Assembly: GCA_000004695.1 (NCBI GenBank)
Contig: CM000152.2
Span: forward strand, 5,792,001-5,856,000
Direction of reading: 5' to 3'
Source of the DNA: Dictyostelium discoideum
Taxonomy: Eukaryota
Length of the DNA: 64,000 nt
A model generated the notes under the pieces. That model had not been told where the DNA came from. It searched no databases and saw only the letters and a list, made by a program, of their open reading frames with translations. Position numbers and translations under genes: made by a program. Below are positions 3,939 through 12,422 of the stretch, piece after piece; within the stretch, counting starts at the first letter, position 1, and each line of letters begins with the position of its first letter.

Positions 3939-6900
3939 TTGGAGTTCCAAATAACACCAAACCAACCCACCGAATCACCAACGGATACTAAAACACTACC
4001 ACCACAACCATCAACCCAATCTTCATCACCAATTATACAACCAATTCAATCATTTCAATACAATCAAAATCAGCAAACACAACAGACACAACAACAACAA
4101 TTGCATAATGATAATAGTTTACTAAATTTAATTTCAAATTTTTTAAATAGTGTCCCATTACCAATTTCAAATGGATTACCATATAATCAATATCATTTAT
4201 ATTTTATTGAAAAGATAGTTGAAATGTGGATTCAAATTAAAATTACAACTTCACCAGGATGGTCTCCATCTATTATTCAATTTGAAAAATCAAATTTATT
4301 GAATGCTTGTAAAAATGTATTATTCAATTATCCAGATGTCATTAACCGTTTCATTTCTCAAAGATACTCTAGTGAAATTGATTATTTAAATTCAAAACTT
4401 AAAGAAACTTTAAATATTATTAATAATCAAAATCAAAATCATAATAATAATAATAATAATAATTTTGATGATAACCAACAAAAAAGTGAACCATCATCAC
4501 CTTCAGTTTTACCAACTCCAATTGAATCAAGTACACAATATTATAGACATGAATATAATAGAATTCAATCAAACTACATTACTGTGTTTGAACAATTTCA
4601 ACAGTTTAGTTTCTATTCACCAACTTCAAACTATACTATATCCAGTACTTCCTCTTCAAGTAGAACAATTTCACCACAACCATTTTTAAATAATAGTTGT
4701 CTTAATGACAATAGCACCCTCAATAGTGAAAATGTTAATAATAATAATAATAATAATAATAATAATAATTATAATAATAACTACAATAATAATAATTATA
4801 ATAGTAATAGTAATAATAATAATAGTAATTATAATAATAGTTTTATTAATAATAATAATATTAATAATTATAAATTAGAAAATAATCAACCAAGAGCAAA
4901 AAGAGCATATGATAAAAAGAAAATCAAAGAGGAAATTGAAAATAGTTCAGATGAAAAAAAGAAAAAAAATTTTGAAATTAAAGGAGAAAATGAGATTTTG
5001 GAGAAAATTGATATTAATACATTGGAGAAGAAACCATACCAAGATATCTATAGAGTTGCAAAGAGTTTAGGTGTACCAAGATGTAAAAAAGAGGAGTTAA
5101 TACAAAAGATTAAATATTTAATCTGTAAAAATAAATTAATAAACAATAACATTAATAATAATAATAATAATAATAATAATAATAATAATAATAATAATAA
5201 TAATAATAATAATAATAATAATAATAATAATAAAAATGATAATAAAAAGGTTGACAACCAATTGGTTAATACTTCAAAGCAATCACAACTTCAACCAATA
5301 CCACCACAACCACCACAACCACAACCACCACCACAACCACAATTACAATTACAATTACAACAAAAACAATATAAAGATCAAATAAAAAGAAATAATAATC
5401 ATCAACAAATTTTAATAAGACAAAGAAATTCAAATTTACATAACCCAACAAAGAATCTACCAATTTCTAATATATCGAAGAATGAAAGTTTATGGTGGTT
5501 AGTTTTTAAGAATAGAGAAATTAATAGTAGGATATTCTCATTTATGCAAGTCGAAGCTCATAACTATCATGAATTGAATAGAGTTGAATGGATGATTGTA
5601 AATAATCATAAACAATTATTAATTGATAAAGTTTTAAAGAATCAATATTTAATATTCCCTCAAGCTTCAAATTTTAATGATATCTTTTCAATGATTTTTA
5701 AATTTATAAATCAAGATAATAATAATAGTAATAATAATAATAATAATAATAATAATAATAATAATAATAATAATAATAATAATAATAATACTAATAATAA
5801 TAACAATAATAATAATAATAGTATTGATTATAAAGTATTTTATAAAAGTTTATTTAAAAACTATTCAAATTATATTCAAAATATAAATACAAAAGCATTC
5901 TATGCATTACAATTTAAAAATTTAATGGCAGTTCAAGTATTAATTGAAGATTATAATTTCATTCCAAATATTGAAATGTTTAATCATTTTTTAAAACAAT
6001 CTTCATTTAAAGTAATTCAATTCCTTTTGAAAGTTTTATTACAATTTCAACAACAGGAACAAGAACAACAACAACAACAACAACAACAACAACAACAACC
6101 AAATAATACATCTATTCAATTACAAAAGATATTTGATAAAAATGAAATTTGGAAACATTTATATGATCAACATATTAATAGTTTACCAGTATCATCATCA
6201 ACATCATCTTCATCATTACCATATTCATCAACAAATTTATTATCAAATTCATTAATTTCATCAATGGAAATTCCAACTATTAAAAAAAGATATAAAGTTA
6301 TAAATTATTTAATTTCAACATTAGAATTAAAATCACCAATATTATCAAGACAACAAATTAATAATTTATTTAAAATATGTCCAATTGAACAACAATTTAA
6401 ATTAAAACATTTAATTCAATCTTGTAATACAATTTTTAATTTAAAACATTCAAGTAATGAAAATTCAAAATCATTTTTATCATCATCAACATTATCATCA
6501 TCATCATCATCATCAACATCAATATCAACATCAATTCCCATAGGAATTAATAGTTTTGAAGATTTACAAGATATAATTTCTCAATTTAATCAAGATCAAT
6601 TAACTATAAGATTGGATGAATTTGAAAATGAATTTGAAAAATCATTAATTCAAAAGATGTTATTATTTTTTTTCAATTCTAATAATCAAGAGAAATCATT
6701 AAGATATATTTTACATTTTCAATCTGATCATTATAATTCATTAGATTCAATCAAACAATTTGAATCACCCTCAGATATTTTAGCATTAGAGTATGGTAAT
6801 TTTGAACTTTTAAAAAGGTATTTCGATTATAAAATTAAGAATGAAAGTTTAATGATTGAAAATTTAGTTCATAATAATTGTTTTATTAATAATATAATTG

Positions 6901-9584: not shown

Positions 9585-12422
9585 TTAATACAAATGATTG
9601 TTACTATAATGGAAATAAATTTTAGAATTTTGATTATGGATATATAGGTCATTAATTGATTGTTTGAAACGATTAATAAAATAATTGAATAATTCTAAAT
9701 GATCATTATCAATAATCAAGGTAAATAATTCATTAATTTCGCTTGAATCTCTACTGAAATTAATTGACATAATTATTGAAAATTCATTATCCTTTTCAAA
9801 TAATAATTTAAAAATTGATAAATGGCCAACCCTTGCAGAACTTTTTAAACAATCAAATAATAGACCTTTAAATACAGTATCAAGTAAATAACAATCTACA
9901 TCATCGTTTTTTAAACCATAGTTTTCCATTTTATCATTTTTATAATTTTTCATTATTTTCACCAAAGAATCTGTGTCGCCAGATCTACCAATTTCTATCC
10001 AAACGAATTTTGAATTATTATTTTTAAAAAGTGATGAATTTTCTTCAAAATTAAATTTTTTAATATGATATAATAATTCAAAATAATGAATTTGAAATAA
10101 AATTAATCTTGGTGTTGATTTTTGTTGTTGTTGTTGTTGTTGTTGAAGTAAATTTTGTGTTGTAACTGATGTGTTGGTTGTGGTTGTTGTTGTTGTTGTC
10201 ATAAAATTTATAATTGTTGATAAAGAATCTAAATTTTTAGGATCTAAAACTATTAAGTCTGATCTATTCTCTAAAACCCAATCATATATTTTCAAGTGAA
10301 TTAGTGATAAACGTTTTAATTTAGAAGATGGTTGATAATGATTATAAGAAAATTCTGTATTTTCAATTATAAATTGTATATCTGATAAATTTGAATCATT
10401 TAAATTAATAATATCTGATGACCAACAATCCATTACAATTTTATCATATACATATTTAATATTATTATTATTGAGTATTAGTTGTTGTTGATTTTTTGAA
10501 ATTACAAATTTTGACATTTTTATTATATTATCTTTAATTAAATCATTTGATAAAGTGTAAGGATAAACTGAACCAGTTGTAAAATTTATAATTATATTTG
10601 ATGGTGTTAATTGTTCATATAATTCAATTAAGTCAATTCTACCAAGTTCCCATAAAATTGATATATTACAAAAGGAATCTGATGTTTCTATATTTGATTT
10701 AATAATCTTATTATAAATATATTTAAATACTTGTTTTGATTTAATAAATCTGTATATATTAAATATTTTAAAATTTTGGTGTTGATTCTTTTGTTGTTTC
10801 ATTAAAAGTATAATTAAATTATTATTTTCTAATTTATTAAATGCCAAGTCAAGTAATGAAATATCATCATTCTCAACCAATAAATTAAATAGTATAGTGA
10901 AAATTGATGCTTGAGAAACTATAATATAATCACATAATGAATTTACAAATTCAATTTTCAAATCTTGATTATTACAATATTTAAATAAAATATTAGGATA
11001 TTTAATAGATTTATAAATATTTGAAATTTCATTTTTAAATTTCATTACAATATCACATTTTTCATTATTTTCCATAATACTTGAAATTTTATTTAAAATA
11101 TAATTTAATAATTGCCAATTACCATATTCAATTGCATTTATACTAATTGAAATAATATCACTATTATTATTAGTATTATTAAAAATGAAATGATTTAATC
11201 TTTTCTCATCATTTATTGATAATAGATAACAAAGGCTATATTTTCCTGAAATTGAATAATAGGTTTCTAATAATTCTTTTAAATTTGAATCAATCACTAA
11301 TTCATTTTTAATTAATGATTTTAAGTTTTTACTAATTTTATAGTTATCCAATGTTTCAATTAATTTATCAAAATCCTGTTTTTGTTGAAGATCTTCTTGG
11401 TAAGAGTGGGTTAGACATTTTGGTTGCTCTTGTAATGATTGTAATAACCTAATTGAAATATAAGATTCAATTAAATTTTTTATTGTAAAATCATTTTGAA
11501 ATGGACATACTGAAAAATTCTCTTTAATTACATCACTGATATATTCTTTATAAAATTCACTATTGTTACAATTTCTTATTAAATAATTGATTATTTGATA
11601 TCTTTTTCTAAAATTAGTAGATCCATTAGTTATTGTTGTTGTTGTAGTTTCTGATGATAATTCAATCCAATATAAATCTGTTTTATTATTAAGTATTGAT
11701 GTTATTATTAATGATATTATTTTCAAATTTCCAACTTTAATCGATTCATTTACTATTTCTTTTTCATAACCAATCAACCATGATGGTAATTTTAAAGAAT
11801 AATTATTATTATTATTATTATTATTATTATTATTATTATTATTATTATTATTATTATTATTATTATTATTATTATTATTATTATTATTATTATTATTAAT
11901 ATTATTATTAATATTATTATTATTATTATTATTATTATTATTATTATTATTATTATTAATGCCAAAAATACTTAATAAAATTTTTAAACCAATAAAATTA
12001 TTACATTTTATTAAATCTATTATTAAATTTTTATAATTTATAAAATGATTATTATAATTATTGAATAATGATTTATAAATTAATTCTAATCTTTCAATTT
12101 CTTTTTTTTTATTATTTCTTTGATTTTCTTGATTTTTAAAATTATTTTTTAAATATTTAATATTAAAATTATTAAAAATTAATTGAAATGATGAAAAAGT
12201 TGGAAAAACTAAATAATCACCTCTTTTAATTTTATACTCCAATAAATTAAACCATTGATTATTTATTATATATTCTACATTTATAATTTGATCATATTTT
12301 AATGATCTAATTCTATTTGTTTTTAATAATTTTAATATTTTTAAAAATAAATATTTATTTTTTATTATTTTAAAAAATAATTTCTCATTTTTGATATTAT
12401 AATTTATAATTGTTTCTATCAT
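9585..12422 (-). CDS. Hypothetical protein of 945 aa, paralog of the 3939..8480 gene and of the gene at 63098.
   Basis: ATG at 12422 (plus-strand 'cat' at 12420-12422). The ORF is continuous, with an (AAT)n-encoded poly-N tract at 11812..11950. The N-terminus 'EKLFFKIIKNKYLFLKILKLLKTN' matches 'EKLFLKVFNNKYLVNEIINKIQN' of the 63098 gene and 'LWWLVFKNREINSRIFSF' of the 3939 gene. Confidence 0.7.
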   Translation of the reverse strand: MIETIINYNIKNEKLFFKIIKNKYLFLKILKLLKTNRIRSLKYDQIINVEYIINNQWFNLLEYKIKRGDYLVFPTFSSFQLIFNNFNIKYLKNNFKNQENQRNNKKKEIERLELIYKSLFNNYNNHFINYKNLIIDLIKCNNFIGLKILLSIFGINNNNNNNNNNNNNNNINNNINNNNNNNNNNNNNNNNNNNNNNNNNNNNNNNNYSLKLPSWLIGYEKEIVNESIKVGNLKIISLIITSILNNKTDLYWIELSSETTTTTITNGSTNFRKRYQIINYLIRNCNNSEFYKEYISDVIKENFSVCPFQNDFTIKNLIESYISIRLLQSLQEQPKCLTHSYQEDLQQKQDFDKLIETLDNYKISKNLKSLIKNELVIDSNLKELLETYYSISGKYSLCYLLSINDEKRLNHFIFNNTNNNSDIISISINAIEYGNWQLLNYILNKISSIMENNEKCDIVMKFKNEISNIYKSIKYPNILFKYCNNQDLKIEFVNSLCDYIIVSQASIFTILFNLLVENDDISLLDLAFNKLENNNLIILLMKQQKNQHQNFKIFNIYRFIKSKQVFKYIYNKIIKSNIETSDSFCNISILWELGRIDLIELYEQLTPSNIIINFTTGSVYPYTLSNDLIKDNIIKMSKFVISKNQQQLILNNNNIKYVYDKIVMDCWSSDIINLNDSNLSDIQFIIENTEFSYNHYQPSSKLKRLSLIHLKIYDWVLENRSDLIVLDPKNLDSLSTIINFMTTTTTTTTNTSVTTQNLLQQQQQQQQKSTPRLILFQIHYFELLYHIKKFNFEENSSLFKNNNSKFVWIEIGRSGDTDSLVKIMKNYKNDKMENYGLKNDDVDCYLLDTVFKGLLFDCLKSSARVGHLSIFKLLFEKDNEFSIIMSINFSRDSSEINELFTLIIDNDHLELFNYFINRFKQSINDLYIHNQNSKIYFHYSNNHLY

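Follow-up and report, generated by a model that had tools for sequence, protein, structure and literature searches.

A short N-terminal module on two unrelated helical bodies in a set of probable dictyostelid scaffold proteins from Dictyostelium discoideum

Background

Three long open reading frames (ORFs) in a 64,000-nucleotide stretch of the Dictyostelium discoideum genome (contig CM000152.2 of assembly GCA_000004695.1, positions 5,792,001 to 5,856,000; hereafter referred to as the window) raise the question of whether a segment common to their products makes them one protein family and, if so, what such proteins might do. Two of them, p1 and p2, face each other near the start of the window, and the third, p3, runs off its far edge. 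A first-pass annotation, whose coordinates and strands for all three were correct, had read them as paralogs of a lineage-specific N/Q-rich family that shares a conserved block (hereafter referred to as the N-block). On the evidence presented here, we think it reasonably probable that p1, p2 and p3 are dictyostelid-restricted, non-enzymatic scaffold or adaptor proteins in which two unrelated all-alpha bodies carry a common helical N-terminal module.

The window has a guanine-cytosine (GC) content of ~20% and abundant poly-N/Q coding tracts, and two of its ORFs exactly encode known AX4 proteins of D. discoideum, the aspartate aminotransferase XP_640082 and the ACC synthase XP_640066. Gene models were checked, and sequence past the window edge was recovered, with a second, independent assembly of D. 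discoideum (GCA_054883475.1, loci L001 and L007), whose identity to the window is 99.6% across 21.5 kb. The adjacent ACC-synthase gene served as the syntenic anchor for finding relatives.

Homology among the three proteins

We compared p1 with p2 using composition-adjusted BLASTP and found three collinear high-scoring segment pairs (E = 2e-8, 4e-7, and 1e-5), which span p2 from end to end and p1 residues ~511-1513. After deletion of all low-complexity sequence, phmmer still scored the pair at 40 bits, against a maximum of 3-5 bits in shuffled controls (500 global and 500 local 20-residue shuffles), and this result was unchanged when the N-block was deleted too. The motifs common to the two bodies include KRYxxINYLI, CPxxxxFxxKxLI, AxEYGNxxLL, LFKYC, KYxYD, DIxFxIxNT..YN, and DHLEL. 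The collinear segment pairs and the masked phmmer score identify p1 and p2 as genuine paralogs, as had been proposed, and suggest that they are ancient inverted full-length duplicates. Collinear homology of this kind across the whole body is absent for p3 and for a related gene of D. purpureum described below, and BLASTP of full-length p3 (recovered from L007:5465-8602) against p2 revealed no similarity outside the N-block.

The N-block comprises ~75 residues with the core pattern NE.LF.KVF.NKYL...I ... Y..I..V.WMI.N...LL..KI....YL.F, and the positions N-E-x-L ... N ... I ... L...K.....Y are invariant in p1, p2, p3, and the D. purpureum gene, across which hidden Markov model (HMM) E-values range from 1e-12 to 1e-37. 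When a profile of the p1 and p2 blocks was run against 333 six-frame fragments of the window, p3 was the sole other match (E = 1.3e-4), and its block reached 43.3 bits versus a maximum of 24.6 across 2000 composition-preserving shuffles. Similarly, when a p1/p2 alignment of six sequences was compared with that of the p3 type by hhalign, the N-block itself was the single match (62 columns, probability 89%, E = 2e-6); p3 and the D. purpureum member carry a 13-16-residue insertion within it. The conserved block reported by the first-pass annotation is therefore common to all three ORFs where it had been placed, at profile scores that exceed what composition yields in the shuffle controls, and it is N-terminal in p2 and p3 yet internal in p1 (~residue 511). 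The claim of p3 as a third member holds for the sharing of the N-block but not for full paralogy, because its body is not detectably related to those of p1 and p2. Taken together, the "family" is best described, on these alignments, as one ~75-residue N-terminal module on two unrelated bodies. The N-block has no Pfam model, and a PDB sequence search with its profile gave chance-level matches only.

We further estimated the ratio of nonsynonymous to synonymous substitution rates (dN/dS) by the Nei-Gojobori method on codons outside low-complexity sequence, in comparison with two sister taxa. Whole-gene dN/dS was 0.27-0.32 for p1 and 0.26-0.33 for p2, and 0.25-0.29 for their bodies, while the lowest values were those of the N-block (0.06 in p2, and 0.12 in p1 when compared with D. 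citrinum). These values show that p1 and p2 are under purifying selection that is strongest in the N-block. Given that the module occurs on unrelated bodies and has the lowest dN/dS of the segments compared, it may constitute an autonomous functional unit.

Relatives, age and homopolymer tracts

The order p1, small ORF, p2, ACC synthase is kept in D. cf. discoideum and D. citrinum. The locus differs between D. discoideum and D. purpureum by rearrangement: upstream of ACC synthase, D. purpureum has a protein kinase gene (L009 6482-9528, + strand) with Pfam-recorded FNIP repeats in the place of p2. An ORF 5 kb downstream of the D. purpureum ACC synthase (L009:16292-19471, ~1060 amino acids), for which no Pfam match is recorded, carries the N-block (HMM E = 1e-12). 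It is of the p3 type: its block is 44% identical to that of p3 (E = 3e-11), and the bodies align collinearly in one further segment (E = 3e-7). Since nothing else in the D. purpureum locus has a counterpart in the window apart from ACC synthase and the p3-type gene, the p3 lineage and its loose linkage to ACC synthase predate the split between D. discoideum and D. purpureum. The duplication of p1 and p2, with ~25-32% identity between them, is likewise old, and it certainly predates the D. citrinum split. Local duplication followed by dispersal, as first suggested for the three genes, has weak support in these data: the duplication it invokes for p1 and p2 is real but old, and p3 represents a separate, pre-existing subfamily.

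Every relative found is a dictyostelid, which agrees with the earlier proposal of an amoeba-restricted family. A transposon or viral origin was ruled out by single-copy syntenic orthologues, dN/dS below 1, and the lack of reverse transcriptase, integrase, or viral matches; a scan of viral contigs for the N-block produced 38 pattern matches, none of which was confirmed.

The homopolymer runs of p1 and those of p2 do not coincide in the alignment, and their lengths vary between strains and species. Because the D. purpureum gene has the block yet no poly-N tracts, and indeed no homopolymer tracts of any kind, the N/Q runs are variable, species-typical insertions between conserved blocks and not a family trait. 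"N/Q-rich" thus characterizes the proteins of D. discoideum at large and is not a property of the family. The features discussed here and below are collected in Table 1.

Table 1. Positions of the features of p1, p2, p3 and the intervening gene (window coordinates)
Feature	Position	Strand	Extent	Remarks	Basis
p1	3939..8480	+	1513 codons	Intronless; N-terminal extension, N-block and helical body	
p1 start codon	3939..3941	+		TTG in the window; ATG in GCA_054883475.1 (L001:140), after a poly-A run	
p1-specific N-terminal extension	3939..5468	+	residues 1-510		
Candidate HeH (Rho_N/SAP-like) motif	5022..5114	+	p1 residues 362-392	YQDIYRVAKSLGVPRCKKEELIQKIKYL; preceded by a K/R-rich basic stretch	
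N-block in p1	5469..5708	+	residues 511-590	Internal owing to the extension	alignments
p1 helical body	5835..8477	+		Collinear with the p2 body	
DDB_G0282465	8686..9114	+	142 amino acids	Hydrophobic; exact match to XP_640064.1 / Q54SH5; outside the family	
p2	9585..12422	-	945 codons	Intronless ORF; N-block and helical body	
Isolated ankyrin-like motif	9801..9848	-	p2 residues 859-874	LKSSARVGHLSIFKLL; p1 counterpart VAAQEGSIQIFEYL	
p2 best-modelled stretch	10548..11180	-	residues 415-625	Stacked short helix pairs in the model (alpha-solenoid)	
N-block in p2	12147..12398	-	residues 9-92	Most constrained segment	alignments
p3	63098..64000	+	first 301 codons	Part of an intronless 1046-codon gene that leaves the window edge	
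N-block in p3	63197..63472	+	residues 34-125		

Fold and candidate domains

Searches of Pfam, NCBIfam, and PDB sequences returned no significant match for p1, p2, p3, the D. purpureum protein, or the isolated blocks, and when PDB sequences were searched with the D. purpureum protein or the conserved islands of p1, the matches did not rise above chance level. The absence of any catalytic domain in Pfam or NCBIfam accords with the initial view that no enzymatic function is indicated. An AlphaFold2 model of full-length p2, built from a shallow window-only alignment, was nearly all helical, with a predicted local distance difference test score (pLDDT) of 43.6, which is too poor for a structure search. 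When residues 415-625 were modelled alone, the pLDDT rose to 60.3 with a predicted template modelling score of 0.57, and Foldseek against PDB and viral models found nothing significant (best E = 0.12 and 0.08). These low-confidence models point to an alpha-solenoid fold class. The likeness to alpha-solenoid scaffolds of the HEAT, ARM, TPR, or ANK type is one of fold class only: the HEAT, ARM, and TPR repeat profiles of Pfam had no matches, p1, p2, and p3 show no regular period, and in the p1 and p2 genes long homopolymer insertions separate the blocks.

A more specific possibility, which we consider rather unlikely, is that the proteins are degenerate members of the ANK superfamily whose ankyrin repeats have diverged past detection by Pfam. 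Scattered motifs of the form A-x-x-x-G-[NH]-h-x-h-h-x-x-h-h, with the exact spacing of the ankyrin helix pair, do recur (AIEYGNWQLLNYIL, ALEYGNFELLKRYF, SARVGHLSIFKLLF, and AAQEGSIQIFEYLY, with AIKNGNIHIVKYYY in p3), but they lie 41 to more than 200 residues apart instead of forming tandem arrays of 33 residues, and a TPLH-type motif is absent. The motif at p2 residues 859-874 aligned by hhalign to a consensus ankyrin protein above its shuffled controls (25.6 versus a column-shuffle maximum of 12.2), over 16 columns only and at a probability of 4%. No Pfam Ank model (PF00023/PF12796 and the clan) matched p1 or p2 at E ≤ 1, nor did any match p3 or its D. purpureum relative at E ≤ 10. The FNIP repeat (PF05725) had no match in p1, p2, p3, or the D. 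purpureum p3-type protein. The downstream FNIP- or ankyrin-type repeats raised by the first-pass annotation thus did not emerge from these searches, the ankyrin side being limited to isolated motifs.

It is likewise unlikely, and slightly more so, that the N-block is a highly divergent F-box and the proteins are SCF substrate receptors, with Skp1 bound to the N-terminal module and the solenoid selecting substrates. The layout is that of F-box receptors, in which an N-terminal helical module (~50-75 residues) precedes a repeat-type interaction body and is reused on different bodies, and hhalign placed the block in a sensible register (NKYLxxxIfxxi with (D/E)ELLLxIFSxL) with a score of 16.0, where 20 column shuffles reached 11.3 at most, against a small reference profile of seven F-box sequences, of which Skp2 alone was verified against PDB. 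However, the hhalign probability was just 4% (P = 0.011), no Pfam F-box family (PF00646, PF12937, and related families) matched the four blocks or the whole proteins at E ≤ 10, and the canonical LP dipeptide and conserved W (the LP...W signature) are absent. F-boxes of Dictyostelium are reported to be very degenerate, with insertions between helices (PMC9485057, which expands the list of F-box candidates), and the insertion in p3 and the D. purpureum member sits at a position like those in the F-boxes of that study; the searchable text and supplement of the same study contain neither the genes of this locus (sought by inferred dictyBase identifiers) nor strings resembling the N-block.

The N-terminal extension of p1

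The internal position of the N-block in p1 had been ascribed either to an N-terminal extension or to a mis-called start. We found support for the former. The start codon is ATG in the independent D. discoideum assembly, the D. cf. discoideum orthologue begins with M at the equivalent position, and the extension contains constrained islands (~residues 72-255 and ~317-395, with poly-N/Q/P tracts between them) that are 88-96% identical to their orthologues by BLASTP, with a dN/dS of 0.34-0.39 for the extension; for these reasons we take the 510 residues as an authentic part of the gene. The most conserved stretch of the extension is p1 residues 72-160 (4152-4418, + strand), with 96% identity in D. 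citrinum over residues 86-158, and the first island, which includes it, had no match in Pfam, NCBIfam, or PDB.

That the first 510 codons lie outside p1, through a mis-called start or a fusion of two genes with the true start near the N-block, is in our judgement very improbable. The TTG that the window shows at the head of the ORF and the N-terminal N-block of the other members would fit it, but a frame without stops over 4.5 kb is very unlikely for non-coding DNA of 20% GC, and the second D. discoideum assembly has not only the ATG at the exact position but also a called product of identical length (1513 amino acids). The shared start position in D. cf. discoideum and the constraint on the islands also speak against it. 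The TTG reflects either a mistake in the sequence behind the window or variation between strains, which would disable the annotated start.

Within the extension, p1 AKSLGVP..KKEELIQKI fits the Rho_N consensus AKeLgI...rKqeLI.aI and, as in HeH/SAP/Rho_N domains, follows a basic stretch; phmmer also aligned it weakly with residues 6-34 of 3l0o, in the N-terminus of Rho. Unlike the N-block, this motif occurs in p1 only and is not a feature of the family. We regard it as a lead for nucleic-acid or chromatin binding and not as a domain assignment.

The notion that the similarity is a by-product of N/K/I-rich composition in an AT-rich genome, with no true family, is next to impossible to sustain: although the genome has only ~20% GC and profiles that include poly-N columns do give spurious, high-bias matches to unrelated ORFs, it is refuted at the sequence level by a masked p1/p2 score >35 bits above every global or local shuffle, a p3 block 19 bits above its own, composition-adjusted BLASTP E-values down to 2e-8, and an N-block match at E = 1e-12 in the D. 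purpureum protein, which is free of low complexity. The first-pass annotation had named similarity confined to composition as the outcome that would overturn it, and the pairwise alignments with masking and shuffle controls did not bear this out.

Gene models and locus layout

The genes p1 and p2 are convergent, as the description of a tail-to-tail pair implied, but they are not direct neighbours, since the 1.1 kb between their stop codons contains a third gene, DDB_G0282465. This gene is conserved in both sister taxa, D. cf. discoideum and D. citrinum, where it probably likewise encodes a small membrane protein, as it seems to do in D. discoideum. In the same two taxa, p1 and p2 have orthologues with uninterrupted ORFs.

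For p2, the automated annotation of GCA_054883475.1 gives a spliced model of 925 amino acids with an additional upstream exon (L001 5790-8966, - strand, equivalent to window ~9609-12785). This model looks wrong because the orthologous 945-codon ORF is uninterrupted and its MIETII start is common to three taxa, which supports an intronless p2. The additional exon lies in a GC-richer patch upstream of p2 (12620-12775, - strand), which is conserved at 69-79%, an ordinary intergenic level, has no Rfam or tRNA match, and is probably a promoter or 5' untranslated region. Rfam and tRNA scans over the whole window gave no matches either. Three long I/V/D-rich "ORFs" in an alternative frame or on the opposite strand (7420-7731, +; 60572-61600, +; 19409-21196, -) are other readings of AAT/CAA/ACA-type codon repeats and not genes.

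Discussion

We favour the interpretation that p1, p2, and p3 act as scaffolds or adaptors rather than as catalysts. Their bodies would provide alpha-solenoid surfaces for protein interaction, and the N-terminal module, under constraint of its own, would serve for docking or targeting and join different solenoid "receptors" to one common partner. In p1, the extension, with its basic stretch followed by an HeH/SAP-like motif, may add tethering to nucleic acid or chromatin.

Several points weigh against this interpretation. The docking idea derives from domain-shuffling logic and the pattern of constraint and not from likeness to a known docking domain. The match of the HeH candidate of p1 to the Pfam Rho_N model (PF07498; E = 0.0031) scores 17.9 bits, short of the 24.9 bits that Pfam requires. 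Moreover, p1, p2, and p3 are absent from the large protein collection that was searched, so that zero matches there are uninformative on the size and distribution of the family: exact look-ups show that the three proteins are not in the collection although their neighbours are. A word-indexed homology search with p2 (raw and masked) returned 8000 candidates of which none scored, and an exhaustive HMMER search of 1.84 billion representatives with p2 residues 214-945 yielded no match, not even p2 itself; p1 itself scores just ~40 bits against p2, which is borderline in a library that large. The clustered protein collection lacks the homopolymer-rich proteins of the window (p1, p3, and a 935-amino-acid neighbour encoded at 58865-61669) but contains neighbours free of low complexity, while a gene index holds p1, p3, and the 935-amino-acid neighbour and has no record of the exact p2 product. 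No relevant literature was found under neighbouring or inferred dictyBase, UniProt, and RefSeq identifiers.

A bolder version of the scaffold interpretation, to which we give little credence at present, holds that the N-block is a new dictyostelid docking domain (perhaps an extremely diverged F-box or another E3-ligase adaptor box) that would couple otherwise unrelated alpha-solenoid receptors to a single machinery, with p1 as its chromatin- or nucleic-acid-tethered form. Lineage-specific helical-repeat orphans are common in Dictyostelium, and for this reason a specialist would not be surprised by the family, which is undescribed but of an expected, lineage-specific kind.

The present value of these findings lies mostly in annotation: p1 and p2 as old paralogs, p3 as a relative through the module only, the extension and start of p1, an intronless p2, and N/Q tracts as incidental features. 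If the bolder version is true, the locus would expose a hidden class of substrate receptors in the ubiquitin system of Dictyostelium. The N-block, if it is a docking domain, would represent a small and so far undescribed family of domains from a major model organism, and could be used to search for further members and for the partner that they have in common.

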